Positions 22,235 to 56,342 of a stretch of DNA of 64,000 nt are shown here, piece by piece. A program made the position numbers and the translations under genes. Positions within the stretch are counted from its first letter, which is position 1, and every line of letters begins with the position of its first letter. The notes beneath the pieces are model-generated. The model worked only from the letters and a program-made list of their open reading frames with translations, did no database searches and was not told the DNA's origin. The DNA is from Trypethelium eluteriae (taxonomy: Eukaryota). The stretch spans positions 1 to 64,000 of the forward strand of contig JAVECL010000019.1 of assembly GCA_051942245.1 (NCBI GenBank), given 5' to 3'.

Positions 22235-24146
22235 ATGTTTACACAGCGCTCGACAGAGATAGACTTCGGAAACTTGCTGGCACGATTGCAGCTGCTCGTC
22301 AAGCGATTTGAGTTCACGACCCTCGTAGTATGGATCGCTCTTCTGATGAGCGGGTGGCTGGTGGTGGATTATGTACGAATGCTATGGCTTAGAGCAAGAA
22401 TGGTAACCAGTGATGCCACTTGATTCATCAGCCATCTTCTCGACCGCGCTGATTTCGAGGAAGCCACCAGGCCCCTTCCCTCTTCCTGTCGTCGGTAATA
22501 CCCATCTGCTCCCCGACAAGAAGCCGTGAGTCTCACAAATCTTCAGACTCTAGCCCCTCAATACTCAGTGCAAATAGATGGATCTACTTCGAGACCCTTT
22601 CTAAAACCTACAATTCGCCCCTCATCACCTTCTGGGTTGGTCGCCGCCCGACTATCTGGCTTAACGATGCCTGGACCGCGTCCGCCCTCCTCGATAAACG
22701 TGCTGCTATCTACTCCTCTCGACCGCGCATGGTCGTCTTCGCCGAGTTGGGCGCCGGCCAATCCAATCTCGTCAACATGTACTACGGTGACCGATGGAGG
22801 CTACATCGCAAACTCACCCACCTCGGTGTTGGGCTACAGCAGGTACGGAAGTATCGCGGTTTTCAGAACGACGAGTCGAAGATTGTGGCTTGGAAGATTT
22901 TGGAGCAGCCTGAGAAGTATGCAGAGCATTTTGAGCGATATGCTACCTCGGTCGTGAGCATTATTGGGTTTGGGAGACGAGTCGCATCAGAGGACGATCC
23001 AATCGTGACAGAGGTTATCAAGGTCATGCAACGGGCGGCGGAGCTGAACGTTCCAGGCAAAAGATTCCCCATGCTGATGGAGACGCTTCCCTTCTTGGCT
23101 CGCTTTCCAACGGCAATCGCCCCATGGAAGCATGGACTGGGCCGTAAACGTGGCATCAACTTTTTCTATGCCCTTGCTGAGGAAGCGAACGAGACTGAAG
23201 GACATGAAGACTCCTACATCAAAGCGATTTTCCGGGAAGGGCCCAAGTATGACCTTTCCATCGATGAAATCGCCTCCTTGTCAGGCAACTTGTTCGGTGC
23301 AGGAAGCGACACATCCAGCTCGACATTGATTACCTTTGTGCTTGCTTGTTGTGCGTTTCCTGAGACGCTACTGCATGCATGGGAGGAGCTCGACAAGGCC
23401 GTCGGCCCTTCGCACAGTCCGAATTGGGACGACCTCGAGCAACTGCCCTATGTCAAAGCATTCGTAAAGGAAGTCTTGAGGTGGAGGAGTGTTGCCATCA
23501 TTGGCGGGCAACCACACGCACCCATCAATGACGACACTTACAACGGCTATCACATTCCGAAAGGTCAGCGAGAGCTCTCCTGTCCTAGCGATTTGATTGA
23601 TCGCATACACTGACTTTATTCCAGGTACATGGGTCCAAGGCAACGTGTGGGCAATCCATCACCATGAACGCGAATTTCCCGATCCCGATCGCTTCAAACC
23701 TGAGCGGTTTCTGGGAGACGATTCGTGGACGAGGCCATTTCCGAATGAAAAGGGATACATGACTTTCGGCTGGGGGCGTCGCGCATGTTCTGGTCAAGGT
23801 CTCGCTGAACAAGGAACTCTGATTACTGTTGCACGATTGCTCTGGGCGTTCCGCATCGAAAAAGCGCTAGATAAGACAGGTCAAGAGATTCCGGTTGATA
23901 TCTTTGCGTACACGTGCGTATATCACGTCAGCGCTTGATCCATGCGGTAGCTAACACTTCCGTAGTGATGGACTCAACATGCGCCCACAGCCCTTTAAGG
24001 CACGATTCACGCCAAGAAGCGAGGAGATTCGAGCGACCATTGAGAGAGAAGGTAGACAAGCGCTGCAAGATTTGGCGGAATACGAAGGGGAGACTAATTA
24101 TCGGATGAGTACATTTTACCAGAATCCTACCCGGTCGAAGAAATGA
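22235..24146 (+). CDS. Cytochrome P450 monooxygenase
   Basis: N-terminal TM anchor, then PPGPFPLPVVGN, I-helix AGSDTS, EVLR, PERF and heme motif FGWGRRACSG. Four introns; stop 24144-24146. Confidence 0.95.
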
Positions 24147-24461: not shown

Positions 24462-25564
24462 TCAAGCATATGTTCCCTGAATCCTCATGTGCTGAAACTC
24501 GCCTGCAGTTACAAACTCCGAGGACACCTTTGCTCCGAGACCCGAGCCGTCCAGCAGAGGGCGCAGAACGGCTGTCCGATCAGGCTTTGCAAAATAAGCT
24601 ATTGAAAAGCGCTCTTCAACGACATCCCCCTTTCTTGCTTGTTCGTTACCTTGTGGTAATTCAGGTAGATGAACACGATGTCGTGCGCTACAGAGACCAG
24701 TCCATTTCTGCAGGCAATCTCCCGCATTCAGGATGCACTCGTACGGGCCTCCGCTCGCGATGCCGACGAAGCTCCCACTCCCGGGCGGTGATTCGACCTC
24801 AAGACCTCCTACGCGGTCTTGGAACAGGAGCGTGATGCTCCCAAAGTCGGTGTGCGCTGCAATCCGCGTCGAGGTAGAGAATGCCTCTTGCGGTACGGCT
24901 GGGTAGTGGGTTAAGCGTAGCTCATTGTGCTGAGCTGCGTGGAGCTGGCTTAGTGTCTGTGTTGGAAGGCCCAGCCCTATGGAAATAGCCTCGAGAATGA
25001 GCAGTTGTGTGCGGTAACATACTTCGAAGAATTCGACGAAGGTGGGCTCAAAAGTGTCACAGACCCCAGTAGGTGGCCAGATGTTGCTGTAGAGCTCGTC
25101 TCGTTCAGACCCAATGTCATATGACTCCTATCCGAAGAGTTTGGTAGCTGTGTCAGAGACCAGAAGTGGGGTTTGTAGCAGACCTTCATGTCTTTCAGAA
25201 GAGGAAGTTGGGATGACTTGTCCTCACGCCCATAGTTCGAGATGGTGGAGACATTCTCTAAACCTACCGCGCTGAAGCCTCGGTGTGGGTTTGCTGTAGG
25301 AGGATGAGGAGACTTTAATTTCTGGTTTAATGGTAGTTGGAAGAAATGCCGACTCTGGTCGATTCATTAGCGAATAGCACCTTTCGTCGGTTCACTTCGA
25401 CTTACCGTTGCAAATGCCTTGTCAATTGTCGAAGGCTCGATGCCGTGATTTACGAGTCTCACGAAGCCGCGTTGTCTGAGGCCTGACACGAGTTTGCGGC
25501 AAAATTGATCACGCTTTGCTACATTGCCGCTTTGATAATTCGCAAAGTCAAGTCGCTCAAACAT
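24462..25564 (-). CDS. 2-oxoglutarate/Fe(II)-dependent dioxygenase, IPNS/DIOX_N family (HtyE/GloF proline-hydroxylase-like)
   Basis: Three exons translated by hand without disruption: GFVRLVNHGI, HPPTANPHRGFS, KESYDIG...NIWP, ELRLTHYP, RIAAHTDFGSITLLFQD..GGLEV, HRV, RFSIAYF. HxD...H triad and RxS intact. The largest exon is absent from the ORF track. Confidence 0.92.
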
Positions 25565-26181
25565 CCCTTGAAAAATCGTCAAAATGCCGCGAAGCGCTCC
25601 CAAAGTCCAGGAAGTCAGACTCTCCACACCGAGATGCCATCATAAGTTCGGCGTGACTGCTCGTCTTATAGTCTCCTTCCTTCGTATCGGGATCCTCACC
25701 AATCTTGTCTCACTAAGGCAGGGGCCGTCTCGGTGATCCTTCAAAAAATTTTGGACTCTATCGCACGGTGCACTTTGCCAAGGGTCTTCGTTCCGTGGCT
25801 CTAAGTCCTACTCAGCGAGGCGGTGAAGCTCGGATGTCAGCCGGTGAGGCCAGTGCCTAAGCGTTCTCTTTGATATAATAAAAGTAGTTCTTGCGAGTCG
25901 GAGGCACGATCGGAATAGTAATCCATATCGTACTTGACCAGACTCGCGGTGGAATGACTGCCACTCAATGGCCCTCCAAGCGACTCACATTTTATTCTGA
26001 ATACAAATCATCTCGCGAGTTCGCCATGAGCTTTGCGATGCTCGGCTCACGAAATTACGTTACAAAAGTGCCAGGCTGGGTACAAAGAAATTTGTCCTCA
26101 GAATTTCTCTTTTTAGTGCGGACAAGTGCCAGGTCAGATCATGGCAGCACTAGACTACCCCCAGCAAGCTTCTACGTATTA

Positions 26182-29100
26182 CTAGTGCTCACACAAAATT
26201 GTTCGCAGTCGAAGTAAAAACTCTCGCACTGTCCCCTCGTCAATAAGTTTCCTGTTGCCTTCAAATTCTAGCTCCAGCTTCCCACTTCGCGGTGTAGCGT
26301 AAATCTCTGGGCGATTGCGCGGAAGTAGGTCTCTTTCATAGACGGATACATTGCTCTGCCATCCCGCAAACGTGAACTCTGTATCCTCTTCTTGCTGATA
26401 AGCAGTACGCCACCCAAAGTCTTGCACTTCCTTCGGCCACTCAGTGCAACTTTTGATGATTTCAACCATTCCCATGGCTTCATGAACCGAGTCTTGTATA
26501 AACTGGGGCTGTAACTGCATTGCGATGTCACTCATCGAATCACCCGCTTCTATGCGCAGTCTGACAGGGACTTCCGTTAGACAAGGGCCGACGACTTTTT
26601 GAAGCCGGGTTGGAAGCATTGAACGGCCCGTAACCAAGCGACCAAATACTACCTCATCTCGTTGAAATTGTTGCGACAGGGCCAGAGCACAAGCAGCATG
26701 GAAAACTGTCGCAGGAGAGACTCCATCGAACCATCGTACACTGGGCATTTCAATGGTTTCCTTCATTGTCAAGCGATCTCCTGTGTTATAAGCTTGACCT
26801 GTCGGGTCGCCGGTACTCGACTCCGGAAATGGGCAGCCGTTCAGCCTTGAAGCCCAATACTGCATGCTGTCATTTTTCTTGGTCTCATTGAAAGCGATCA
26901 CCTCACCAAAAGCAGGTGGTATTGGTAGACTCTCTTCACTGTAAATAGACGACAAACTTTTTAGGACGAGTCCAAAGCTGAACCCATCAAATTGAGCGTG
27001 AGATAGCCTGAAAATGAGCCTGTGCTTTCCGGAGTGATGCTTGATAGCCATGAAACGAATGAATGAATGGCCCAATTTTCGATCCCTTTTGAGATCTTCC
27101 TCGCAGATAGTATTCGTGAAGGAGGACGCGGTTCCGTCATCGACTTCGAAAAGGTCAAAGGTCGGCTTAAAATCCGCTATCAGTACTTGCAAAAAGCCGT
27201 AATCTGCTGGTATGAAGACTGTATGAAGGATGTCGAAGTATTTCACTAGTTCTTCACATGCCCGCTTAAGCCTCGCGAAGTCTATATCGCTAGACAGGTC
27301 AAGGATCCAGTGCGGAAATCTGTTAGGCGGATCTTGTAGCGCATCTAGGATCGCGCGTTCCTGGAAATCCGTCGTCGGAAAAACATTCTTGATACTTCCC
27401 ACGTCTTGATCAAGAAAAGGTTGCACAGATTCCTGCAGAAATATTTCTACATCACTCACTTTGAGTAACGAGAAAGGCGGCAATGCCTGTGAAGACTCCT
27501 TCTCTCCAGTGACTTCCGTCACTAGCTGTGCCAACTGAGAGAGACGAGGCGCTTTGAAGATATCAGCGACGGTTAGCAATAGCTGTTGGTCCCGTGCGGC
27601 TGCCACCAAACGCATAGCTGCAATAGACTCTCCTCCAATCCTCAGAAAGCTACTATCAGCACTAATGCTCGAAGCCTCGATCCCGAGGACCGCGGACCAC
27701 AAGATTTGTAACCGCTTCTCCATCATCGTGGATGGTGCGCGGCGCTCTTTACTTCGTGGTTGCAGTTCAGCAAGACGCTCCAGTGTCTTTGAACCTCCCA
27801 ACTCTCGCAAGGCTCGTCTGTCTGTTTTGTTGGTCGTCGTCATAGGAATTTTATCAATAGGAATGTATGCGCCTGGGACCATATACTGCGGTAAATGCTC
27901 CGAAAGGCTCTCCTCAAGGTCCTCCACAAGTCGCCCAAGCCTGGACCGGATATCTGAATTTGACCGATTTCCATTTCTCGCGAGACTTAAGAACACGGCA
28001 AGGATAGGGTGCTCGCTATTTTGTGGCATGATAATCTCTGCAGCCACGCCATCGCAATAGCTGGACTCCCTCAGACTTGCTCGGACATGGTGTTCAACTT
28101 CTTCCAATTCTATTCGCTGCCCTCGTAGCTTGATCAATGTGTCTTTGCGGCCGATGAATTGCAAGGACCCGTCTGTGTTGTATTTCAGGAGATCCCCTGT
28201 CTTGTAAAGCCTGCCATGTCGGCCTGGATGTCCTTCCAAGCCACGGGTGAGCCATGGCGGGTCATGAATGAATGCTGCTGCTGTTTTGGCCTCGTCGTCA
28301 AAATAACCCTGACTAACAGTTGGTCCTTCAATTAAGAGCTCTCCAATGGCGCCAATGGCAGCCAGATGATTTGGACGATCAGGCTGGACAAGCCATGTCA
28401 GAGCACCAAATGAATGGCCAACATGGTTGTTGGGTGTCCTGGGGCCAAGAGGGACTATTGAAAGAGCTTGCGCGCATTCTGCTGGGCCATAGATCCCAAT
28501 GATTGTCTCTGCTTGTGCCCAGCGTGCGACCTCGGCACTTTGGATCGGCTCGCCTCCCATCGCCAATGTTCTAATACCCGGCATGGCAGATGGGTCCAAT
28601 GACCGAGCAACTGAGGGTGTGAAGTACACGTAATCGGCGTTCATACGGTTGAGGGAACTAGGAATGTCATTTTTGCGCTCCCATTCCGATGGTATGCAAA
28701 GGCATCCGCCGCATATCAAAGTATTTAAGGTGTTGGACCAGGAAACGTCAAAATTGTATGAGACGAAGTCGAAAACGCGAGTTCCCCGTTTGACATGTAG
28801 GGCTTTTGCCTGATGCATTGCTGCGGATGAGAAGTTTTCATGCGTCGTTACAACACCCTTAGGAGTGCCCGTCGATCCAGAGGTGAAGACGATATACAAG
28901 ATATCTAATGGCGAAACTTTGGGTAACTGAATCTTGATCGGGCTTTGGCAAGGTTGCAACGGGAGAGTTGTCTTATCGGCCACGACGACATAGGAATTGG
29001 ATATCCGTGTTGCTAGTGTTTCGTTGGCGACAGAAGAGATAATTAGCCTTGGATTGACTTGTTTGACTATAGAACGTAGGCGTGCTTCTGGCTGGGTTGA

Positions 29101-32100
29101 GTCCATTGCTAGACAAGCCGCACCCGATTTCATTGTTGCTAATGCAGCTACTGGCATCCACAGTGACTTTTCGAAGCACAAGGGGATAACAGTCCCGGGG
29201 CCGGCACCAAGAGTAGCCAGTTGAGAAGCTAAGCGGTCAGAAAGATCATCCAGTTCTGCATATGATAGATTTCCGTCCCACGAGCATATGGCCGGCGCCT
29301 GAGGTTGTTGCAATACGGTGTCCCTGATCGAATCGTGCACGCATGCTTGGGTAGGTCTCGGAACAGAAGAATTCCAGCCCCAAAGTTCTGTAATGTCCTG
29401 CGTGCTAACCGTCTCAATGTCTTCAACCAAGTGAGTCGAAGACATACATACTTGACGGAGAACTTGTTCAAACTGGGAGGCAATGCGTTCCATTTGCACT
29501 ACATCAACAACCTTCGAATCAAAGCTTATCTCTATTGATAGATCACTTGTATGTCTGAGCTGGCACATTATCATTACCGCGTGGGGATTGAAGGTATCGA
29601 GTCCATCGGTGGAAACTTTTAGTTCGGAATGGGTCCGGAATGGTCCACCGCTGTGATTCACGTGCGCACCATCTCCGGCTGGCTGAACGACAAGAAGAGT
29701 ATTGAAATGACCGCTTGTTTTGGTATTCGTATCGGTGCGGCAAGCATCAAGCAATACCGTGTGCTCATAAGGGATCATGTCAATGGACTGTTTCTGTAAG
29801 TTCTCCAGAAGGTCGTTGACGGTCATTTTTGGGTTGAACTTTACTCGCACGGGAAGTGCACTTATGAGAGGCGCGATCATGCGCTCAATGCCCGCTATTG
29901 GCGCCTGCCGTCCCGTTACCAGCGCCCCGAAGACTACATCTTTGGAATCGGTATAGCATGCGGACAAGATCGACCAAGCTGTTCTTATTACGGTTGACGC
30001 TGTGACGTCTCGATCGGGCCATCGCATATCATTTATATTGCGCTTCACCGTACTGTCGGCCTTTGGTTGATAATCCTGATAAGGTAGCATCGGAAAAGGA
30101 ACAGCCTCAGAGTCTGAGAATTGATGGCGCCAGAACTCTCTGGCATTTTCCTTATCAGTTCTTACGATATGCTTCAAAAAGGCCTGGAAAGGTGCCACGG
30201 GGTATTTATTGATCTCGCCCATGTAGGAATTCGAGACTTCTTCAAGAAGCAAATCTAAAGAATGCCCATCATATATTGCGTGATGTTGAGTAAGAACACA
30301 GTAGCGTCGTCCAGTTTCTGATTGTTCAACAATCGCTAGTCGAGTAAGACGGGAGGAGAGACCCATTGGTCTTCTTTGATCGTATTCGAGATACGCCTGC
30401 AGGCTTGGGCTGGTTTGCCATTCTAATTGTTCGCCCAGCTGTACCTGTATCAACCCTTCGATGGGAATATCAACTATCCTAGAGCGAAGAATCGGCGCAG
30501 TCGATCGGCTGATGTCTTCCCATGCTTGCTTCAGGCGATCAATGTCGAGCTCGTCTCGTAGCTCCAAGAGAAGTCTTGCAATATAATCCCCAGGCCGTTT
30601 CACTGTCACTGAAAGAAGTGATTTTTGGACATCAGTACAAGGGAATGCGTCTTCAATGTCTGATGCCTGTGTACCGCATAGCCTAGATATATGTGCAATA
30701 CTCTTGTCCTTGATATTTGCCATCCGTAATAACGAGAACGGCTCCACCGTTTCTTCCTCCACCAAAGTGTCGGAGGGTCGAGATCGGGATGTGATTGCTT
30801 TTGCCATTTCGGAAAGTCGCGGCGAACGCAGAATATGTTGAACTGTTAGGTCAATACTTTGACTACGAGCTAGAGCAGCTAACCGCATGGCAGCGATGGA
30901 ATCACCACCCAAGCGTAGAAAACCGCTGTTGGCGCCGATGGTTTCGATAGGAAGACCTAGCACTACTGCCCATAACTGTCGCAGGCAGTGTTCTGCATCT
31001 GTGGACACTGGCACCTCTGCCGCAGCTTCAGTTGCACCAGCCAGTTGTTCAATTGTCAGATCTGCGCCTATTTGCCGTAGGTGTCTTCTGTCGATTTTTC
31101 CACTCGCGGTTAATGGGACAGCTTCAATCGGTATATAAGCACTCGGCACCATGGATAAAGGAAGTCTTTCTGGCAAGGCAATTTGAAGATGGTTCACAAG
31201 CTCGTCCAACTGAGTAGTCGACTGTGACTCATGCTGTATAAAGACAACAAGGGTATCCTTCTCCGTCGCTTTTGGGACAACAATGTCGGCGATCATAGTT
31301 GGCACTGAGTGCGTACGTCCTAGGCATTGTTGAACATGGTGCTCTACTTCGGAAAGTTCGACCCTCTGCCCTCGAAGCTTGGTCTGTCTGTCTTTTCTTC
31401 CGAGGAAGAGCAATGTGCCATCGGCCGGATTGTATTTTACGAGGTCGCCCGTCCTGTACACACGGCCGCCCCTTCCAGGAAGTGCACCATCAGGAGAGCC
31501 TTCCATCAGCCAGGTTGGGTTCTCTAGGAAAGCTGACTCTGTCTTTTCTTCGTCATGTAGATACCCTGCACCCACAAGCGGTCCCTCTAAACAAAGCTCT
31601 CCGATGGTACCTATAGGGCATAATCGCGTATTTGACAGTGGGTCTATTACCCAAGCTAAGACTCCTACTCCAGTGCCTATGGACAGCTGACGGGGTAATG
31701 TGCTTGGAACGCTCCAATACGTCGCCATTGCGGAGCACTCCGTTGGCCCGTATACTACAGCGACATTGGCAGATGAGACCCAGGGAGCAAGGTCATCTGT
31801 TTTCACTTCTTCACCACCAAGGTAGACACTCCGAAGCGTTGGTATTTTGGTAGGGTCAATGAGTCGCGCAGTAGCGGGCGTCAGAAAAATGCTGGTGGTC
31901 CGAAATCTTCGAATGCTGTCAGTTAAGTTATTTTTCCGCTCTTCTTCACTGGGAATGCACAAGGTCCCGCCGGCACAAAGAACATGTAAAGCACTCCAGT
32001 GGGCTGCATCAAACGCGTAAGATGAGAAGTCGTACATGCGCGAACTTCTATCCAATTGGAGAACGTCGCGCTGATGTGATACGGCACTGCTGAAGTTCCG

Positions 32101-35100
32101 ATGTTGTAACAAGCAGCCCTTAGGAGACCCTGTGCTTCCAGAAGTGAAAATAGCGAACAAGAGATCGGCAGATCCGACATTGGGTAGGGGGTCTTCACGC
32201 TTGTCAGTAACTGCAGCGTTGCAGCTACGCAAGAGGTCCGTCTCTGCACCTAACAGCAAGACATTTGCGACCAGTCTTGAGGACAATCGTTTATTGGAGG
32301 GAGAAGATAGGATAATTCGGGGCTCGACTTGGTCCAATGTGGCCCCAAGACGGGATATCGGAAGAGTCGGATCCAGAAAGAGCCCGGCGCCACCAGCTTT
32401 CATTACGCTCAGAAAAGCGACAGGCATCCAGAGTGATTTTTCAAAACATAGCGGAACGATCATGTTCCGATCAACACCATATCCGATCAACCGATGAGCA
32501 ATGGCACTTGAAAATTCATCTAGTTGGCTGTAAGTGAGTTCACCATCCCAGGCAGAGATCGCCACTGCATCGGGATGAGCTTGAGCAATATTGGTGATCA
32601 TGTCATGCGCACAAACTTCAATACTTTTAGGCAATCTGGCATTCCACTTCCACACTTGATCGAGGTCCTGGTGTGTCATCATGTTGACGTCGCGAAGGCA
32701 TACTGTGTCAAGGTCCCGAGAACAGAGGTTCCTCAACAGCTGCTCGAAATGCTGCACCAAATTCTGTATGGTAGCTTGGCCGATCACCTTAGAGTCGAAG
32801 CTAAGCTCTAACTTCAATTGTCCCGCTTGAACTGTGCACACAGCCAGCAGCGCATATGTGTTAAAGGCATGAAAGCGGTGTTCTTCCTTGTGGCGCTTAC
32901 TTGGGCCAACCTCAGAAACAAATAATCCACTGTCCATCATGTCTGGTTGCTCCGGCTGCACGACCAACATTGTCTGGAACTGGCACGCAGTTTTCGCTTC
33001 CTCACTGCATCGACTTATCTTCGACAGCCCTGTTTGCTCGTATGGAATCATCTTGGTCGCCTGGTCCTGTAGAGCTTGTAGAAACTGAACGATGTTTCTT
33101 CCATTGTCAATTTTGACTCGGATTGGCAGAGCAGATATAGTCGGACCAGCGATTCGTTCGATCCCTACAGTGGGAGCCTTACGGCCCGAGACAATTGTTC
33201 CAAATACTGTATCCGAGAGATTTGTGTACCGTGAACATAGTATGGCCCAGGCCCCCCGAACTACTGTTGAGGGTGTAGAGTCGTCCGTTCGCCACGTTAT
33301 CCCGTCTACCATATGAGTATAGGACGAGTCTGCTTTCGGTTTGAACGAGCTAGAGGGCAAAGCTGGGAATTGAGTTGTTTCCAAGCCATCGAACTGAGCT
33401 TTCCAAAATTCGCCTTCTGCATCCCAATGTTGACTGCTGACATATTCAATGAATGATCGGAAAGGGAAGAGGCGGAGAGGTGTTTCACCGTTGTAATAAC
33501 GTTCCAGCACCTCAAATATAATGGGTGTAGTAAGTCCATCGTAAATCGAATGATGCAGCGTCAATGCAAAAACATGGGAGCGTTCGCCTCCAGGTCCACT
33601 TTCGGGGTCTCGGAAAAGGCCGCACCTCATGAGAGGAGACCCAAGTACCATCGGAAGCTCCTCTTGTTTGCTCAGATAATCTTCAATACTTTCAGCTTCC
33701 ATCCAACATGAGGTGTGTCGAATGACTGCTTGGACTAGGCCTTGAGCAGGTAGGTCAATGATGCGGGTTCGCAGGATTGGGATGACCGAAACAACTTTTT
33801 CCCAAGCCTCTTTCAGTCGTCTAACGTCCACGGTGGAAGCCAGTTTTAGCATGTTGTAACCGACATAATCGTCCTTCCGCGTCCCAGTCAAGGCTAATAG
33901 GCCCTCTTGTAGCGGTGTACAAGGATATAGGTCTTCGATAGTATCCTTCTCGACGTTGCAAAGGGATGCTGCATGCTGACGTGCTTGATCGACGTTGACT
34001 TTCGGATTGAGGAGTAAGAAAGATTTAGACGACTCCTCATCTACCTCATCTTGATTCCTTAGTAATTTCGCCATATTCTTGAGTTTTGGGAATTGAAAAA
34101 TATCGGCCACCTTCAGCGACAGGCCTTGCTGCCGAGCTGCGCCCACCAAACGCATGGCCTGAATTGAGTCACCCAGTCGGAGAAAGCTATCACTCGTTGA
34201 GATTTTCTCGGCGTCCACTCGAAGGATACAAGACCACAGTTCCCGTAATGTTCTCTCAGCCGTAGTCGCAGGCTCTCGTTTCCCATCGGTCCCCTGTTGC
34301 TGCGGTTGAAATGAAGCTCCAATCTCTCGGAGGCGGATTCGGTCCTTCTTGCCTGTCGAGGTCATCGGAATGCTGGCAACTGGTATGTAGTAGGAAGGAA
34401 TAGCAAATGCAGGTAAAGACGCCTTGAGTCCCTCATTCATCCGAGCTGTCAGACTTTCGAACTCATCTTGTGACGCCGTTTCCGCCTCGGCAAAACTAAT
34501 GAAAGCCACGAGACATGCGTTGTTGCCATCCTTGGGGACTATGAGTTCAGCCACCACATCAATGTTCGCTCTTCTCAAGAGGCGCCGTACATGAAACTCC
34601 ACTTCCTCAGGCGCAACAAGCTGGCCTCGAACCTTGAATAATGCGTCTTTCCTCCCCAAGAAGATGAGTCTGCCACTTGAATCGTATCTGGCTAGGTCGC
34701 CGGTGCGATAAATCTGGCCGTGCCTGCCGGGAGATCCTTCGCGTCGTCCGCACAAGAGAAAATCCGGATCTTTGCAGAAAGAGCGATTGCTTAATTCTGG
34801 ATTGCCTTAATATTTTTCAGCGCATGCCGGCCCTTCGAGTGCGATTTCGCCTATCGCACCAAATGGAACAAGCTTGTTATGGTTTTTAGGATTGACAAGC
34901 CAGCAAAAAGTTGACGGACTGGAGTTAGATCGTCCAATCATACCGTTATGCCACCCTTCTTCGTCAGCAGCGCAGAATGCCGCTGCAGAACATTCACATG
35001 GGCCATACCAGTTGAGGATGCGACTTCTGCCTCTCCACCGGTCGACTTCCTCTTGCACGAGGTTCTCCCCACCCAAAAAAAGCGTGGACAGGCTAGGAAC

Positions 35101-38100
35101 TTCCTGAGGGCTGAGAAGTTTTGCAGTTGACGGGGTAAGACATGCAAGATTGCAGTCAAAACGGTTGATGGCGGCCGTCACCCCGTCCAATCTCTCAGAC
35201 TCGGACGGAATACACAGACAAGCGCTGTTTGCAAGCGTAGACATCGTCTCAATAGTACAGGCATCGAAGTCGTGTGATGTAAACTGAAAGGTCCTTGATG
35301 ATGTACTCAGCGCAGCAACTTCTTTGTGTGCGTTCATATTAGCTGCAAGAGTTCCATGAGTCCATAAAATCCTTTTCGGTTCGCCTGTGCTACCAGATGA
35401 GACCAATATCGCGGCTGGTTCATTTATAGACATTTCTGGCAGGCTCGTGCGAATGCTATCCTCAATCGGCATTTCCATGAGCTGACTTATCGTGAAGCAA
35501 CGAATGTATTTGGTCACAATCTTCGAACGCATCTCTGAGGCTACTGCGAGGTGAGGACCAACGCTGCTGAAGATGCTACTCATTCGGCGCTCTGGCATAT
35601 GCACTGACTGTAATAAGCATACGCCTCCTGCTTTGAGCACCGCCAGCTGTGCAATGGGGGTCCATTTTGACTTTTCCAGGCACAAAGCGATGATCGAACC
35701 TCGCGTCACACCCAGGCTAATCAAATTCTGACAGAAGATATCAGAAAGCTCGTCAACCTCTCGATACGAGAATTTCCCATCCCAGGCATCTACTGCTATC
35801 GATCCCGGAGTTTTCCTGGCTGCGGAGTTAACTTGGTCTTGCGCACACATCTGAGGAGCCTGACAAGGCTTTGCATTCTCGCTCCAGAAAAAGTCGAGGT
35901 CAATGTCGCTGGCAGTGTAAATATCGCCAAGCTTCCTGCTCTCAGCATCTGCTATGCACATCTGATGAAGAACAGTCTCGAATTGGTGCGCTATTCGTTG
36001 AATCTGCCTACTTTGGATAAGCCTGTTGTCAAAACTGATGTGCAGCTGCAGGCCTGAAGTCTTTAGCTCACATATCAGCATCAAAGCATATGTGTTGAAA
36101 GGATCAGTGCCTCGCGTATCAATATTCGAGGAGAAACTTCGGGCCTTAAATAGTAAGCTATCCTCTTGTAAGCTTTTGCCTTGAGCCACCGGTTGTACGA
36201 CGAGTAACGTCTGGAAAAGGCCACTTCCCGGGTCACCGATAGCACGTTGAATTTTCGACAAACCGTAGTGTTCATATGGTATCATGCTCACCGATTGATG
36301 CTGAATACGTTCCTGAAAATTTCTGATTGTCTCGTCCCAATCGATTGAGATGGCCACGGGCACCGTAGATATGGTAGGACCGACGCAGTCCTCGATACCT
36401 TTCATGTCTGCTTGTCGCCCGCTGACAGTGGCACCGAATATAACATCGTCAGAATCTGTGTATTGAGCAGAAAGAACGGCCCAAGTGGAGCGTATGATTG
36501 TCGACGGTGTCATCCCAGAATGCGGCCAATCTAATGATATACCGTGCGACAGATCTTCATTCGCTTGTGGATCATAAGTTGGAGAGGGAACGGCTGGAAA
36601 CTGCCTAAATTCCAAGTTTGGAATTTGTTGCTTCCAGAACTTTGATGCCGCTTCGGGGTCAACATTCGTTGAATACTGAATAAAATTCTGGAAAGGCGTG
36701 ACATCCATGCCTCCTTGTTCGAGGTACTTCGACTCCAACTCATCCAACATCATCCTCAACGAGCTTCCGTCGTAAATGCAGTGATGAATTGTCAGGATGA
36801 ACCTATTGTCGATAATAGCAGCACGGCAAAGATCCGTACCTAGTCCCATCTCCTCGCGCTCATCCTCTTTCAAATACGCGTCTACGTTGTCGCCAGTCCG
36901 CCATGAAACATTGACGAGAATGACCTGGAACAATCCCAGACCAGAGTAGTCAATGATTCGAGTTCTCAGGATGGCCAGTTTCTCGGTCGTAGCTCGCCAT
37001 GCCTTTTCTAGCCGTTCAGGATCCACACCAGTCTGAAGCTCGAGGACACTTCGTGATACATATTGGCCCGGCCTCCTCACAGTCATTGCGAGGAGACCTT
37101 CTTGAAGAGCCGTGCAAGGATACATGTCGATAACGTGAGAATGTGGAACCTGGCAAACTTCGGCTGCATACAATCGAGCTTCAGTATGAGCAATGTCCAG
37201 GTCGAGAAGTATGAAAGGAGGCACTCCTTGCTGGGGAGAGTTGACGTCTTGCTTAACTACTTCAGCCAATTTATCTAGTTGTGGGGTCTGGAATACTTGC
37301 GCCACGGTCAGCGAAAGCCCTTGGGCATAGGCTGACGCAACAAGACGCATCGCGCTGATTGAGTCGCCTCCTAGGCGCAGGAAGTTGTCGCCAGCATGTA
37401 TAGTATCTCTCTCGATCCCGATTATTTCTGCCCAAAGGTTTTGTAATACTTTCTCCATGTAAGTGGAGGGTTTTCTCAGCTCACGACGAGATGGTTGTAT
37501 CTTTGCCAGCTGGTCAAGCGTCAGCGAGCTTCCAATCTGCCGTAGGCGCTGCCTGTCAACTTTTCCGGTGTAACCTGTTGGGATTTTTAGAATCGGAATA
37601 TAGAGCTTGGGAATCATGTACGGTGGTAAGACATCGGAAAGGCTTCTTTCAAGATCGTCCACCGGGAATATTCGTTTCATAAAGTGATCAAGTTCCTTTG
37701 CAGAGCCAGCTAAAACAGCAGGGGGGCTGACGAAGAGAGTTAAAACTTCATTTTCGCTTTTCTGCGGCCGGAAGATCTCTGCTACTATTGTTGTGTCGGT
37801 TGTCTTCGATAAGAAGCAGTGAACTTGGTGCTCAATTTCGCTCAGTTCGACTCTCTGCCCACGTAATTTTCTTTGGAAGTCATCACTACGTCCAATGAAA
37901 ATTATACTACCTTTAGAATCGTACTTCACAAGATCCCCAGTTTTATATATTGGCCTATTTCGTCCTGATATCACATCGCGACCGTGATGAAGCCAGCGTG
38001 GGAAGATAAAAGGGTTTTCCGGTGATGTCTGGCTGTCGCCACCAATATAACCATTTGCAAGAATTGGACCCTCAATGCAGAGTTCTGCAATCGTACCAAT

Positions 38101-41100
38101 AGGGGCCAGAAAGTTGTGATCTTTCGGATCAACGAGCCAACTCGAGCCGTATATGCTGCGACCAATCATCCCTGGCTTCCAAGTCTCGTCTTCGACTGTG
38201 CACACGGTCGCACAAGATGCTTCTGCTGGTCCGTACCAATTGTACAAATGGTGGAGAGTGCTTGTCCATCTGGTTGCAGGATCTTGTAGTAGCTTTTCGC
38301 CTGTGAATACCAGAGTTTTCAATGAGGGGACATCTTTGGGAAGGATCGTGTTGGCAACTGACGGTGTAAGACAAATCCAATTGGCCTGCATCTCATGAAT
38401 GGCTTCAGCTAGGTGGTCAGACCTGTGATCCTCTGATGGAACGCACAAGCAGCCACCAGCGACTAGCGTCGCAAGGGCCTCCAAGCTGCTCACATCAAAA
38501 TCATATGCTGAGAACTGGAACACTCTACTACCAGTAGTGATCTTGAAAGCCGATACAGCTGCATGGACATTGCTTGATAAACTTGCGTGACTCCAGGAAA
38601 TGCTTTTCGGAGTACCTGTCGACCCAGAAGTGAAAATAATTATAGCAGGGTCGGCCGAAACTGGCTGGGCTAACCGGGTCTTCTCGGTGCCATCTACTCT
38701 ATCTGGTTCGACAAGTTCAGAGATGTGGAAGACTGGTACGAACCCATAAAATGCGGACGACTCGGGTATGCTTGATGTTATGACTAGCTTAGGTCCTAGG
38801 GCATGGAGAACCTTATGAGCACGATGAATAGAAGCGGATACAGACATCGGCAGTGCTGTGGCCCCGGCTTTGAGGATCGCTAGTATTGAGACTGTCATCC
38901 AGGCTGACTTTTCAAAGACCAATGGAATGATGCTCCCAGTGCCAACACCTTTGTCTCGCATCTTAGCCGCGAGAGATGTTGATAAGCGTCCCAATTGGTA
39001 ATAGGTAATTTTCATATCCCAAGCCGAGACGGCAAGAACGTCTGGTTGAGCGAGCGATTTGGTGTCGATCCAGTCGATGACAGGATTCAAGGTCGGTCGA
39101 GGAATATGTCTATTCCACTCCGAAATCTCTACAAGGTCTTGCTCACTGAGAGCTGAAACATGACACAATTTCATATTTCTGCCTTCTTCAGTACAAAACT
39201 GCCTCAGTAAAAGCTCCAGCTGGTGAGCAATACGTCGAACCTGTATGTCTTGAATTGCTCCGGAATCGAAATTTATTCTAAGCTTGAGACCTGATTCTTC
39301 CAATTCGCAGATAATCATCATTGCATAGGAATTGAACATGCCCAAACTTTTTGTCTGCTCGAGTATAAGGTCATCTCCCGAATCTGTACAACGCCGAGAG
39401 AAAAGGCCTCCTTGCTGTTGGCTGGATCCCTGTACAGCAGGCTGAACAACGAGTAAGAGCTGAAACTGACTGGCTTCCTGGGTATCTTGAGTGATGTGCT
39501 GGATTCTTTGTAGGCCAAATTGCTCGAAGTCTGTCATTTCTAATGCTTGGCTTTGTATTTGTTCGTGTAAATCTTCTACGGTCTGGTCCCATCCGAATTT
39601 AATTCGTACTGGTACTGTCGCGATGGTGGGCCCCGCCATTCGCTCTATACCAGTGACAGACGCTTGTCTACCGCTTATAGTTGTCCCAAATTTGACATCG
39701 TCCGAATTGGTGTACAATGCTAATAGCATTGCAGTTGCTGATCTTATAATTGATGAGGCAGTAATGTTCGTGGATGGCCATTGTAGTCCGGAAATTGGGT
39801 GATAGAAATCCATGTTAATTCCACCATTGGAACTTGGAGATGGGAAGACTGTTGCCCGTGACCCTGACAATTGCCTTTCCCAGAATTCTGTAGCTTTGGG
39901 CACATCTATGGCCATTGAATATCTAATGAACGATTGTAAGGATACAAGAGGCCAAAACGTTGTCTGTTCAGCACGATAAGCTTGCGCAATAGTATCCAGG
40001 ATGAGCATCGTACACCAGCCGTCATGGATAGCATGATGCATTTCCAAATAGAATAGACGTCGATCACCATTGAGAAGACCTGCTCGACATAGCGGTGTTC
40101 CGAGGCCCATTCCTCCTCTTTGACTCAGTGAAGCGCCATCAGGAAAGTGTGCATGTAATGTTACTGGAGAGCTCAGAACCACGTTCACAAGACCATTTCG
40201 CGAGAGTTCAATGATGCGAGTACGAAGGATGGATATCTGCTTGACCGTGGCTTCCCAAGCCTTTTGGAACTTTCCAACATCAAGTTCATGAGGCAACCGG
40301 AAGACTACCTTTGATATGTAGTCTCCTGCCCTTCTGGAAGTCATTGCAAGCATTCCTTGCTGAAGCGGAGTGCAGGGATATACGTCCTCGATCTCAGTGA
40401 TTTCAACGCCGCAAAGCCTTGCAGCTTCTTGGCATACTGCGAGCTTCTCTTTCTTTCCATTCAACAGGGAAAATGGCGCAGGAGCTTCGTCATGCTGTGA
40501 TTTAGCCTGAGCTCTAGTGATATTGGCCAGGTCGCTCAGCTGTGGTGTTCTGAAGATATCTGCCGCCGTAAGCATTAGGCTCTTCTCGCGCGCTGCTGCA
40601 ACCAAACATACAGCAGCTACTGAGTCGCCTCCTAACCGGAAGAAACTATCTGTTGTGCTGATACGAGCGGGACTCAAATCCAATACTCGTGCCCAGAGCT
40701 GCCGAAGATGATGTTCGATCTCGTTGGAGGGTTTGCGATACTCGGCACTGGTCATGATCGACGACTGTAAGCTGTTCAGATCTTCCCGAGAAAGACCATT
40801 CCCAATCTCTCGAAGTCGCCGTCGATCTACCTTACCAGTGGCAGCAAGCGGGATCTCTTCGACAGGAAGGTAAAAACTAGGGACCATGAAGCTCGGTAAC
40901 ACTTTAGAAAGCTTCTGCGAAAGACCGTCTATTAGCGGCTTGGCTCGTTCCCTCTCGTGTTCTTTTACGTTTACGAACAGCACGAGCGAGGGGCTTCCAT
41001 TGCCGGCAGGATGGACGACATCTGCGATAATCGGGAGCTCATCATCCAAGCAGGCGCGCGCATGATATTCGACATCACCGATCTCGACTCGTTGACCCCT

Positions 41101-42444
41101 GATCTTGAGTTGCGACGCATCTTTCCGGCCAATGAAAAGGAGCTTCCCATCTGTTTTATACTTTACAAGGTCCCCAGTCTTGTAAAGTCTGCCTCGCCTA
41201 CCAGCGAACTTACTGCTGCCGGTCAATAGCCAAGGAGGATCGTGGATAAATGCTGTGGATGTCTGTTCTGGATTGGATAAGTAACCTTGGCCAACAAGTG
41301 GCCCTTCTAGATACAGCTCCCCTACAGCTCCCCTCGAAACGAGTTTGTCGGTATCGTGTGGATGAACGATCCAGGTACCAAAGCCAACTCCTACACCGAT
41401 ATCCGGGCGCTCGTCTTTTGTAGAAGGAAGTAGTGAGAAAGCACATTTAAAAGTGCATTCAGTCGGTCCATAAGTATTCAGAAGCCTCACATGCCTAGCC
41501 CAGATCAAGTTTTCGCGGTAAGGCATTTCACCGCTCAGAAGCACTGTGCGAAGAGTGGACGGGATCGGACTGATAGTCCGTAGAACTGTTGGGGTGACGT
41601 TGATCAAGGACGCGTTGAATACCTGTATTGTTGAAGAAAGATCGTTCATCATGTCTTGTTCTGATGCGATACAGATACAGCCACCGGCGCATATGGTGTG
41701 CAAGAAGTTACTCCACGCTACGTCAAAGGAGTATGGTGCAAAGTCCAAGACGCGCGACTCGCAGCAAAAGCCGAGCTTCTTACCTTGGTATTCAACAGCG
41801 CTCCTTACATTGGCATGGCTGATGCAGGCTCCTTTGGGCAGGCCCGTGGTGCCAGATGTGAAGGAAATATAAGCCGTGTCTAAAGGCGAGACCACAGGGA
41901 GTCGGGATGAGTGCTCTGGGAGATGAAGCAATGTTTCGTCAAGTTTGAATACTGGCACGTCCGCCAGAAGCGAAGCCCTCTCGTAATTAGCGGTGGATGA
42001 GATGATTACTCCCGGCTGCGCCTGCTGAACAACGGATCGTAGCCTAGCATCTGGTTGAGCAGGATCGAGGGCAATGGCAGCACATCCTGACTTTATGACG
42101 CCTAGCATTGCAACAGGAGTCCATCTCGTCTTCTCAAAACAGATGGGGACGTTCGACTTCGGAGTAATGCCCAGATCAATAAGTTGCTGAGCGACCCGAT
42201 TCGCTAGAGCATCTAGCTCAAGATAGGTCAATTGGCCATCCCAGGCATCTACTGCCAGCGCTGAAGGCTGACTTCCAGCTATCTCTGCGATCAAGCTGTG
42301 GACACAACCATGGACTGGGTCCGGTACAGAAGAATTCCAGTTCCATATTAGGTCGAGATCCTCCTGACTAGCACTGACAGAGACCGTGGGCTCCTCTGAA
42401 GAGAATTCGGCTGTATTAGCTAGGAGGTCATTGAGTACGTGCAT
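26182..42444 (-). CDS. Five-module non-ribosomal peptide synthetase (A-T-C-A-T-C-A-T-C-A-T-C-A-T-CT), interrupted by one in-frame TAA at 34807-34809
   Basis: ORFs 34807-42444 and 26182-34755 are in the same frame (..GPACAEKY*GNPELSNRSFCKDPDFL..). Five A domains (TSG/SSGxTGxPK, YGPxE, YK/RTGD), five carrier motifs (GGDS, GGDS, LGDS, GGDS, GGES), four HHxxxDG C domains and a terminal SHAQFDG CT-type domain. No E or MT domain seen. 5421 codons including both stops. Confidence 0.95.
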
Positions 42445-42720: not shown

Positions 42721-43226
42721 CTGGTGCTCATCTCCTGCTTAGTCATTGAAGTCGGAAGATTGGGCGCGGGATCGTTGCGTCAGCGCCCCGATACTCTACT
42801 GTACTGTCTCACCAGCCAATTGCTGCGTCCTCTGCATCAACCTTAGCAAAACGAACATATTTCTCTTACATCCATACACCATGCAACTCAGGTAGCATTC
42901 ATCTCGCCCGCGTTATCCGCACTATCCAAGGTTTCACTATCTATGGCTTTACCTGCGGTATCAGTGGTTTATTGATCATCGAAAGGCAATTCTCTGAATG
43001 GATGAAGGAACTCAAGGTTGGGTGAATTACCTTGAGCACTGACCTGCAAGTTATCCTGGTCTAGGTCTGTGTCAATGATCCATCTCCGTCGCAAGTCTTG
43101 CAAACCACATCGTTCTTTAGTCGTCGAACTCTATCTAGCTCATGTGAAGGATTGATAGAACCTCATTTTCTGATCAGACCTTGTCGACTGCAAAGATATA
43201 GTTCGAACACATTGGTCCGATATCCC

Positions 43227-45758
43227 ATGGATCCGGTGACTGCGATCGGCTTGGCAACCAACGTTGCTCAACTAGTGGAAATCTCGTGGAAAATCGTGTC
43301 AAAGAGCCATGAAATCTATAGACACGGCGCTCTGCCAGAGCATCGGGAAACTAAAGCGGTGACCACAGACCTGCAAAATGTGAATAATAAGCTACTCGAA
43401 TTTTGGTACAGAGCTGAAAAGGATAAAACCACGACTGACGACGATGAGTCTCTCCGTCGGCTATGCGAGTCTTCAAATCAGATCGCGAACGTGCTGATCA
43501 AACGACTCAGAACTCTTGAGCCTGGTGATGAGTACCGTAGCTGGAAGAGCCTACGGCAGGCACTCAAGTCAGTGTGGCTTAAAAGCGAGATTGACGAAAC
43601 CGCCGCCCGATTGCAGGCTTATCGTACACAGTTGAACACGCGCATCTTAATGTCATTGAATGACAAGATCGACCGCCTTGATGGAAATTCCAAGGGCATC
43701 ATGACCAACCTCGCCGAGAATCGAGCTCTTCTAAACGTCAATCAAGAGATTCACACCCAATACCTCACAAAGTTAATCACCGCTCAACGTGATAAGACAC
43801 GGGGCATACTTGCTGATCTGGCCAAGGTCAACCGAGCTCCCAGGTCTTTAGTACCTCACCCAATGGAGGCGATTTCGCAGCCTAAGGACTATGACCCGCG
43901 CCTTGTAGTACTTGAGGCGGCGAGTGAGCGGAATATTGCGACGCTACGGCGCGCTTTGCGGGAAGATCCCTCAGCTATCTTTGCTTCCACTGATTCTGGT
44001 CAGACCGCACTTCACTTTGCAGCCAGTGTCGGCGATGCGGACTTGGTAGCGTATCTGATCCGCAACGGTGCAAGAATCAATCCTGATGATGACGAGGGCA
44101 GGATCCCTCTCCATTGCGATGTGGAATCCGGATCAGATACCGTTGTACGGGCGTTAATTGCAAAAGGGGCCGACGTGTCGGCCAAAGACGCTCAAGGGCA
44201 CACTCCTCGGGATCTATGCAGTCCTTCGACTCTTCTGGAGTGGACCGTCACTCATGGTGCTCATATCGAAACAAAGGATAATGAAGGATGCTCGGCGCTC
44301 TTTCACTTCACCGAGCAAGGCGATGTCGAAGCTGTCTGCACGCTGCTAGACCAGGATGCTGATAAGGAAACCATTGGCAGATTGAATCGAACCCCGCTAT
44401 TAGAAGCAGCCAGACAAGGTCACGTAGAGATCGCCCAGCTCCTCCTCGCACGAGGCGCAGATGTGCATCAAGTTGACCACATCAACGAAACCGCGCTAGT
44501 GATCGCTGGCTGGCAGGGTCACACGCGAGTGGGCGAGCTACTCCTCGACCATGGTGCTGACATCGAGGCAACTACCATACACGGCGATACAGCTCTAGCT
44601 GGATGCTGCAACAATGGCCACGTCGGGATGGGGCTAATGCTCCTACGACGCGGGGCTCAGATAGAGCGACACAACTTGGCCGGTTATGCTCCACTCCATC
44701 AGGCCGCCAAGCATGGTCACCCGTCCCTAGTCGAAGACATTCTTGATCGGGGTGGCAATGTAAACGTCCTCAATAGCCGCATCCATTGGACACCACTGGC
44801 TGAAGCATGCGAGCACGGATATGTCAGCGTTGTTGAGTTGCTGCTTGCCCGTGGCGCTGCGACTGGGACACGAACTGGAGAAGACGGCAAAACCGCTCTC
44901 ATGCGGGCGGCTGAGAGGGGCTATATACGGGTCATACAATGCTTAATGGATCATGACGACGCATTCAACATTGAGGACTCAGACCAGGAAGGGAGAACAG
45001 CTCTTTTCTGGGCAGTTATTGCCAATCGCATCGACACCGTCCAGGAATTACTCCATTTGGGTGCAAATATCGAGGTTCAGGATCTTTGGCGTGCGACATC
45101 GCTCTGTCGGGCCTGCCAATATGCTCATTATGAGATTGCTGAGCTCCTCGTCCATGCAGGTGCTAACGTGAATGCCTTCAATTCGCATGCGTGGCATCCG
45201 CTACATGAAGTCAGCGCGCGTGGCAATGCCACAATGGCTAAGCTCTTATTGGATTGTGGTGCAGATCCCAATTGCCGCAATGATCGACTTTATACACCTC
45301 TGAACCTCGCGGCACAAGGACGCCACCCAGCTGTTGTGCGTGTTCTCCTAGAAAGTGATCGTACTGAAGTCAATGCCGCAAACAAGGATGGTTGGACTGC
45401 ATTAGCAGAGGCTGGCCATCATCGGCAAACTGAAATAACGCGCCATCTGCTTGAACACGGTGCTGACGCTAATTCTCGTGACTCCCACGACTACACGCCC
45501 CTCTTGCGGGCCGCTCAAAGCGGCCACCTCCCAGCTGTCATACTTCTTCTGGATCAAGGGAAGGCCACCGTTGATGTTGTGAATACAGATGGATGGACAG
45601 CGCTCGCAGAAGCCAGCTGGCATGGCCATTCCGATATGGTGAAAGCGTTGCTTGCCAGGGGAGCAAGCCAGGACATACGCAACAACAAGCGCCAGTCACC
45701 TCGAGACCTTGCTCAAATAAAACGCCACTCACAAGTCATTACTCTACTGGATGGTTAG
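43227..45758 (+). CDS. Fungal NLR-type N-terminal helical domain (SesA/HeLo-like) fused to a long ankyrin-repeat array
   Basis: MDPVTAIGLATNVAQLVEISWKIV...WKSLRQALKSVWLKSEIDE...L is the typical start of fungal NACHT proteins. It is followed by roughly 17-18 G.T(A/P)L..A....G repeats. Single exon; no P-loop. Confidence 0.9.
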   Translation: MDPVTAIGLATNVAQLVEISWKIVSKSHEIYRHGALPEHRETKAVTTDLQNVNNKLLEFWYRAEKDKTTTDDDESLRRLCESSNQIANVLIKRLRTLEPGDEYRSWKSLRQALKSVWLKSEIDETAARLQAYRTQLNTRILMSLNDKIDRLDGNSKGIMTNLAENRALLNVNQEIHTQYLTKLITAQRDKTRGILADLAKVNRAPRSLVPHPMEAISQPKDYDPRLVVLEAASERNIATLRRALREDPSAIFASTDSGQTALHFAASVGDADLVAYLIRNGARINPDDDEGRIPLHCDVESGSDTVVRALIAKGADVSAKDAQGHTPRDLCSPSTLLEWTVTHGAHIETKDNEGCSALFHFTEQGDVEAVCTLLDQDADKETIGRLNRTPLLEAARQGHVEIAQLLLARGADVHQVDHINETALVIAGWQGHTRVGELLLDHGADIEATTIHGDTALAGCCNNGHVGMGLMLLRRGAQIERHNLAGYAPLHQAAKHGHPSLVEDILDRGGNVNVLNSRIHWTPLAEACEHGYVSVVELLLARGAATGTRTGEDGKTALMRAAERGYIRVIQCLMDHDDAFNIEDSDQEGRTALFWAVIANRIDTVQELLHLGANIEVQDLWRATSLCRACQYAHYEIAELLVHAGANVNAFNSHAWHPLHEVSARGNATMAKLLLDCGADPNCRNDRLYTPLNLAAQGRHPAVVRVLLESDRTEVNAANKDGWTALAEAGHHRQTEITRHLLEHGADANSRDSHDYTPLLRAAQSGHLPAVILLLDQGKATVDVVNTDGWTALAEASWHGHSDMVKALLARGASQDIRNNKRQSPRDLAQIKRHSQVITLLDG

Positions 45759-48046: not shown

Positions 48047-48865
48047 TTTTTTATTCTTTGTAGATTACTTTGACAAGAAGGGTATTGGTTGACAAAAATC
48101 AGAGTGTCAGGCAGTGGAGACTTACCGTATCTTACATCCATGATTTTGCTACTGGATAAGAATAATAACAACAAGCTTCAAGTACCATCTGCCGAACAAG
48201 GAAATTTCTGCTACCGAGGCAAGCCTTCACATGTTAAGTTCTCGGCAGGTGCCGGTGTCAGGGTTAACCGGAAATGTTACCCCAGAACAACTAGGGTTTT
48301 CCCAAAAAGTAAATTCCTTGTCAAACAGGGAGATGATCGTCCGTGCAAGAAACAAGTCACCAAAATTCGATGCGGACGCTTAACTTTCCCATCTGCCCAA
48401 GCCCAACGGCAACGGCATCTCTGCGATGCCCAAGTCCACATGCTTTTTTCCATCCGACCGATATGGGATCTAAAGAACGCCATGTGACTTCTTTCCGATG
48501 TATCCAGTTGGTTGAGTACCTGAAGTACAAGCGCGGCAAAGATCGTTGACTGCCGGTACGTACAGCACTATAGGCTATTATGGAGGTAGATCCCCCTATC
48601 TCACCCTAATCAAACTTTGAACCAACTTATTCCTTCCACATGTGAACCTCTGGCCAAGCGACCAAGCCTGTCAAGGTAAGCACGGCAAACGAGTCTAACG
48701 GTCTCATGCTATTACTTAATGCGGACACAGAACAACCTCTCCCTCGCAAGAGGGCAGCACCGTCTGTTGAATACGACGGTGAGGGGATATTCCGAGCCCC
48801 TGGATAATAATTACAATGAAGTTACCGCAGGTCGGTCGCCTTTCAATTCTTGCTTACGCAAAGTC

Positions 48866-55682: not shown

Positions 55683-56342
55683 TTATGCACCACCACTAGC
55701 ATCCTGGTTATTCGCGTGGGCAACAACACTGGAGTTCTTAACAGCCAACACAGTACCCCGCTCATCCATGTTATAGACGTCTTCAGCTCGGATATTGAGG
55801 CGTATTCGTGTCGCCTCAAAGAGATTAAGAAACGCCTGCACCTGCTCAAGTGAAGCATATTCTGATTTCTTCTCATCAATTCTTCGCCCAATCTTGGTGG
55901 CAATGTCAGGGTTCCTTCGTATAAAGTTATTTACCCAAAGCTTGCCAAGGGGTGCTTGATCGCCAGAGATATAGAGGACGCGTGCAGGCATTTCGCGAAG
56001 CCGGGTGTGGCTAGGAGGAAATCCGCGTCCATCTTCTTCGAGTATCCAATTCTTCAAAAACACCTCTTGTTCAGGGCTCAACCTCTGTTGATGTTCATGA
56101 GCGGAACGCGCAGATTGACTACCGCGTAGTCGTGCAGCGAAGGTGCTCCTAGGGATACCGTACGCATCAGTGCATTTGGCCATGGACGAGAGAACACCTA
56201 CGCGATAATCTGCGATAGCTTTTTCGATAGTAAGCTCACGTTCATCCATTCTGCGGCAATGGTGGAGGAATCAGACGAAAGTTAAGGTTTTGGGAAGTAA
56301 ACGCGGTGAGTGGACGAACACCCTGAATGGGCGAACTCTCTA
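55683..56342 (-). mobile_element. Truncated pogo/Fot1 (Tc1-mariner) DNA transposon: TIR, HTH_psq, CENP-B HTH and start of the DDE domain
   Basis: ORF with YGIPRSTF..RL.G, LSPEQE..L.NWI, LGKLWVNNFIRRNP and VYNMDERG, after which similarity ends near 55735. Upstream TIR-like sequence (56305-56340) has internal direct repeats GTTCGCCCATTCA/GTTCGTCCACTCA next to TA. Confidence 0.88.

Follow-up and report, generated by a model that had tools for sequence, protein, structure and literature searches.

A premature TAA codon in a five-module NRPS gene of the lichen-forming fungus Trypethelium eluteriae is probably a recent loss-of-function allele

The window, a stretch of 64,000 nucleotides from contig JAVECL010000019.1 of Trypethelium eluteriae, contains a five-module NRPS gene whose reading frame is interrupted by one TAA codon. 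The stop is present in this assembly and is known from the assembly alone; a recent, natural loss of function of the NRPS is its probable explanation. According to this scheme, a C>T transition would have converted a Gln codon to TAA in a single-exon gene. Translation would then end at residue 2545, leaving the third A domain (A3) without motifs A7-A10 and dropping everything from T3 through the terminal C domain. With A3 incomplete and T3 to the terminal C domain lost, no pentapeptide would be expected to be made. The 8.6-kb faux 3′ UTR that results probably triggers nonsense-mediated decay. The absence of a second lesion may reflect too little time since the loss. The lesion itself carries little biological weight, and its practical point is a false intron in a public protein record. 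The more valuable lead is the pair formed by this NRPS and a neighbouring 2OG oxygenase, which is conserved in many ascomycete classes and for which no product was found.

The positions of the relevant features are collected in Table 1. At the site of interruption the minus strand reads GAA AAA TAT TAA GGC AAT CCA GAA (E K Y * G N P E), G being the base at position +4 after TAA. The stop is located right behind motif A6 (GEIALEGPACAEKY) of A3 and 33 residues ahead of motif A7 (YRTGD, 2579). Two minus-strand ORFs abut here in one frame, 42465-34807 (2,552 codons stop to stop, 2,545 when counted from the ATG at 42444) and 34806-26182 (2,874 codons), and the earliest in-frame Met of the 3′ part is residue 2669. 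With X placed at the stop, the gene spans 5,420 codons from the same ATG with no further stops or frameshifts. Pfam and motif scans of this reading revealed an (A-T-C)x5 architecture with five domains of each type, the last C domain being of the terminal type (SHAQFDG), and none of the A, T, C and A10 motifs is missing. The gene is present in a single copy in the genome assembly (29 Mb, 1,369 contigs). The first-pass annotation of this DNA was thus right that a single nonsense codon splits the gene inside A3, and right that the frame is otherwise kept with no other lesion.

Table 1. Features of the NRPS locus and candidate introns spanning the stop
Feature	Position	Strand	Basis
Cytochrome P450 exons adjoining the 2OG oxygenase	22453..23938	plus	domain scan
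2OG-Fe(II) dioxygenase (331-aa model P0312), apparently intact, conserved NRPS neighbour	24462..25564	minus	model, orthologs
NRPS 3′ part, 2,874 codons: A3 motifs A7-A10, T3-C3-A4-T4-C4-A5-T5, terminal C (SHAQFDG)	26182..34806	minus	domain/motif scans
Premature TAA, codon 2546, A domain 3	34809-34807	minus	ORFs and translation
NRPS 5′ part, 2,545 aa: A1-T1-C1-A2-T2-C2 and A3 through motif A6	34810..42444	minus	domain/motif scans
138-nt GTATGA..AAG 'intron' implied by P0124, most likely an annotation artefact, removing residues 2501-2546	34806..34943	minus	splice score, ortholog conservation
Best-scoring cryptic intron candidate, 63 nt, GTGCGA / GCTGAA / CAG, removing residues 2529-2549 including motif A6	34797..34859	minus	splice score

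A homologue search with NRPS residues 2150-2750 as a query produced 811 matches. The best of the 120 listed was P0004, a 4,002-aa protein marked 'partial' whose source label is Viridothelium virens. Its gap-free alignment covers window-protein residues 113-4114 and shows 57 differences; the residue facing the stop is Gln. A single sequencing run was listed, X1, which carries a different allele from that of the window. Over 32800-36800 it is represented by one contig (depth 414) with 72 substitutions, 55 of them transitions, and no indel; at position 34809 A is replaced by G (coding strand C, not T), giving a sense codon at the stop site. Forty of the 72 differences were shown, 25 synonymous and 15 residue-changing, and all 15 match those of P0004 in the shown stretch; the run and the protein therefore represent one allele rather than two independent ones. 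Since this sister allele has Gln, the stop arose by a C>T transition. An ancestral Leu codon (TTA>TAA), guessed earlier from the other modules of the enzyme, gives way to Gln, which lies one C>T transition from the stop.

For wider comparison, 38 near-full-length colinear proteins were hand-picked across genera from the best 120 of the 811 matches. Their identity to the window protein is 52-59%, and the stop is missing from all of them as well as from the sister allele. The residue at the site is Ile in 14, Leu in 12, Val in 9, Met in 2 and Ala in 1, with Trp in none of the 38. The sister protein has a peculiarity of its own: Arg replaces Gly of the A1 YKTGD motif (G424R), a position occupied by Gly in 38/38 orthologs. 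Its model ends at residue 4114 (window numbering), in C4, and the next accession is the 2OG oxygenase. A near-identical C-terminal piece from the sister species was not found among the best 120 of 637 matches. The sister copy may be independently broken, or its model may be merely partial.

Comparison of the two alleles over codons 2214-3134 gave a pN/pS of (14/1993)/(25/652) = 0.18, a value that takes the 40 shown differences as complete for these codons, as the protein comparison supports. The ratio and the intact motifs show that purifying selection acted on the NRPS until recently. The window protein mismatches 52 of 1,452 conserved columns (3.6%), the range for the 38 orthologs being 1.0-7.3%, and long-term relaxed selection is not seen in either measure. 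Polarised changes are equally distributed between the two lineages (20 versus 19 of 56, with 17 unassigned). Neutral evolution of the gene over the entire branch would be expected to leave ~12.6 stops, with a probability of 5e-5 for at most 1. One stop and no frameshift, set against this expectation, place the loss within the latest quarter or so of the branch, or less.

RIP was considered as a cause of the lesion and rejected: the gene is single copy, it has no sizeable internal repeat (the longest is 78 nt at 74%) and RIP indices are normal. T/A alleles among the 31 shown transitions are divided between the window (15) and X1 (16), and 5/15 and 2/16 of them, respectively, are in a CpA context, where the change that created the stop also sits. 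No RIP-like block was found among 600 1-kb blocks on other contigs. Overall, tests of context, conservation and repeats provided no support for RIP, editing or readthrough.

A public protein record, P0124 (5,374 aa, labelled MAG Trypethelium eluteriae), matches the window protein at each of its 5,374 positions and lacks residues 2501-2546. It is most likely the gene model of this very assembly and not independent evidence. To evaluate the intron that it implies, a simple splice score was trained on DNA of this genome. On this scale, sites of the same sample that resemble introns reach ~9-18, and we set the cut-off for an intron-like score at 9. As decoys, 440 stops placed in long ORFs were used. 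The 138-nt candidate scored 5.1, compared to a decoy median of 5.4 (n=440). Frame-preserving GT-AG pairs span 437 of the 440 decoy stops and many span the real stop too, the one used by P0124 among them, contrary to the initial view that no GT-AG intron spans the site. The 63-nt candidate scored 9.5, at the low edge of the range of real introns, and was equalled by 59 of the 440 decoys.

The stretches that the candidate introns would remove are exonic in the orthologs, being absent from 0/38. Twelve near-invariant columns (identical in at least 36 of the 38 orthologs) fall inside the 138-nt candidate and six inside the 63-nt one, and G2529, E2533, G2538 and Y2545, kept in 38/38 orthologs, are lost under both. 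Because both candidates delete conserved residues, the spliced product would be devoid of motif A6; judging from what is known of NRPS motifs, splicing over the stop would not yield a working A3. The intron in P0124 is most likely invented and hides the lesion, which is what gene callers had been forecast to do at this site. As a result, the record presents an 'intact' 5,374-aa NRPS with a broken A3, and counts of biosynthetic potential obtained by lichen genome mining inherit such errors.

The background frequency of lone stops was estimated from a census of ~810 kb comprising the window, targeted loci and 600 kb from six large contigs, with coding-likeness judged by whole-ORF scores. The census contained 90 same-frame ORF pairs (at least 100 codons each), of which 42 were coding-like; 24 of the 42 were intron-like and 18 lacked a good intron. 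By the cut-off of 9, the 63-nt candidate puts the NRPS stop among the 24 intron-like pairs. The random 600 kb contributed 13 pairs without a good intron, ten of which have no Pfam match and look non-coding. A clear lone TAA falls in the nucleophile motif (GxDIGG) of an alpha/beta hydrolase that is complete apart from it (C1:79975, minus), a possible lone TGA occurs in a NACHT-like relic of the 600-kb sample, and one census pair is probably an intron in NKP2. The resulting rate of 1-2 events per 42,863 detectable codons corresponds to 0.13-0.25 lone stops per 5,420-codon gene (95% upper limit 0.38-0.80), real alleles and errors being counted together. One stop in a gene of this length is therefore unsurprising and at background level, and the notion that the lesion stands above chance is not borne out.

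Nonsense decay in this genome is real in a non-reducing PKS gene (C74:36000-45999, minus), which has three in-frame stops (locus positions 5919, 5571 and 4848), all explicable, as read from the context, by a single transition in a Trp or Gln codon, and later loses its frame. The GC content of this locus is 55-59%, while that of the genome is 49%. In a further four NRPS or PKS-NRPS loci (C52, C298, C71 and C265), every same-frame stop or frame break that was inspected falls in a canonical-looking intron. The idea that lone stops are usual in NRPS genes throughout this genome was accordingly dismissed, since the TAG in the 7,475-codon frame of C52 and three same-frame stops in C265 lie in canonical introns. 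The C52 NRPS (C52:41633-64060) consists of a 6,574-codon exon, a 57-nt in-frame intron and a 900-codon exon.

The TAA could stem from an error in the assembly or its consensus, or the thallus could be mixed and the called allele a minority one; the gene of the organism would then be intact. The matching public record is labelled MAG, the TAA is known from one record and the gene has no second lesion, all of which fit such an origin. The change is, however, a transition, like 55 of the 72 allelic differences, and T/A alleles are not in excess on the window side. Stops and frame breaks in the four other NRPS or PKS-NRPS loci are exclusively intronic, and lone stops in 600 random kb hit dispensable gene types (the alpha/beta hydrolase and perhaps the NACHT relic), none clearly housekeeping. 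We consider an error or a miscalled allele unlikely. The earlier suggestion of a very recent strain-specific knockout is the best supported, with the sense codon of the sister allele and the recent date of the loss now added to it; sequencing error, offered at the same time, keeps the small probability just given, and readthrough is unsupported.

The stop may also be real without the allele being null. The 2,545-aa product (A1-T1-C1-A2-T2-C2) has two complete modules that keep their motifs and might release a dipeptide or a diketopiperazine; for fungal NRPSs, truncated variants lacking a release domain are reported to set cyclic dipeptides free (PMC6926027), and split or short models of the family exist in Aspergillus oryzae, Trichoderma virens FT-333 and Pyricularia strains. 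Those models break elsewhere, however, and may be annotation artefacts, while the site here is private, transcript decay is expected and there is no sign of selection for a truncated product. Release of a dipeptide is thus very improbable, and equally so is its extension, a five-module enzyme turned into a two-module one making a cyclic dipeptide, for which the intact 2OG oxygenase might supply a hydroxy- or methyl-proline, and with an independent loss of the long product possibly under way in the sister lineage. If true, a single base would re-route an orphan, widespread fungal pathway rather than kill it. Hardly credible is a bypass of the stop by splicing, readthrough or A-to-I editing, with full-length enzyme made. 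The 63-nt GT..CAG candidate is of typical length, has a near-consensus branch point and passes the cut-off, but 59 of the 440 decoys do no worse, and both candidate introns would cost A3 its motif A6 and the four residues kept in every ortholog. A G after TAA favours efficient termination and little readthrough, and the stop is conserved neither in the sister allele nor in the orthologs. Restorative A-to-I editing, as described in passages of PMC10776026, targets TAG, with TAA serving as an uneditable control, and concerns Sordariomycetes and Pezizomycetes; here a TAA in a Dothideomycete, a class to which the sister species belongs as well, is found at a site where no ortholog has Trp. The Fusarium graminearum PSC pseudogenes of the same passages resemble our case in having an in-frame stop in an otherwise intact fungal gene and differ in the stop (TAG, against TAA here), in the ancestral residue (Trp, against Gln) and in fungal class; the stop in the NRPS is, moreover, not shared with relatives.

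The preferred reading, a recent null allele, has close parallels. Nonsense alleles are common in fungal NRPS and PKS genes according to excerpts of PMC5711037, where 23 of 33 A. fumigatus clusters have nonsense or frameshift variants, Gln-to-stop alleles included, and where 16 variants of these kinds occur in pes3 among 55 strains. In Claviceps purpurea LM72 a single SNP created a stop in lpsA2 (PMC8704706, in part). The present stop is like the alleles of pes3, the cluster 1/4 PKS genes and lpsA2 in these excerpts in being a strain-private single-base change in a large NRPS or PKS gene, with the rest of the cluster intact and Gln as the source codon. Unlike them, it belongs to a lichen fungus and is known here from one record and one sister allele. 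Most likely, it adds another private null allele to those of secondary-metabolite genes and is of an ordinary kind.

The NRPS and its oxygenase belong to the family of Trichoderma virens TRIVIDRAFT_52861 (P0016), with which the NRPS is colinear over ~5,300 residues at 52-59% identity in the same (A-T-C)x5 arrangement. Orthologs of this type are found in Penicillium, Aspergillus, Pyricularia, Talaromyces, Apiospora and several lichens. The near-invariant A1 pocket residues, the same shortened T3 motif and an adjacent 2OG oxygenase are common to the family, whereas the stop is confined to this copy and its approximate A3 pocket residues differ from most. Pocket residues, assigned approximately for A1-A4 (A5 was not captured), are nearly invariant in A1 and variable and hydrophobic in A2-A4. 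A. flavus AFLA_066720 and A. oryzae AO090001000262 are, we assume, members too. Their size and architecture fit the family, as given in excerpts of PMC4073137. For the five-module NRPS of A. hancockii, a 2017 listing in part of PMC5381763 gives T. virens TRIVIDRAFT_52861 as the sole closest match.

The oxygenase is identical to the sister protein P0432 at 330 of 331 residues. Its closest solved structures are thymine dioxygenase and UcsF, and one ortholog is labelled buaE. Locus tags or accessions that follow one another place the oxygenase gene beside the NRPS ortholog in the sister species and in, among others, Xylogone, Trichoderma viride, T. virens, Aspergillus hancockii, A. flavus and Penicillium freii. 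The pair (window 24462-42444; P0006-P0088, P0312-P0354) extends across Sordario-, Eurotio-, Leotio-, Lecanoro- and Dothideomycetes. UcsF and BuaE act in making modified proline-type residues, and by analogy the product of the pathway may be a cyclic pentapeptide with a modified proline-type residue. No product of the family was found in print in a search of the openly accessible literature, so its 'orphan' status is provisional. No compound is named for the family in the excerpts used of PMC4073137, PMC3689640 and PMC5381763.

The cyclochlorotine synthetase CctN is a pentapeptide NRPS encoded together with UstYa/DUF3328 genes, and the NRPS studied here would, when intact, likewise be a fungal pentapeptide assembly line. 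Unlike the CctN and astin clusters, its contig carries none of the 39 UstYa (PF11807) matches of the genome, and no match named CctN or cyclochlorotine is among the best 120 listed homologues. The 39 matches, on ~25 contigs, make the set of fungal RiPP oxidases a large one for a lichen-forming species. Elsewhere in the window, a Tc5/pogo-type transposase DNA-binding fragment without a RIP signature is located at 55683-56270 (minus). An ankyrin-repeat gene of 897 codons in a single frame (43065-45758, plus) is divergent from the NRPS gene, and two GMC oxidoreductase genes at 48680-50797 (plus) and 51418-52931 (minus) are convergent.
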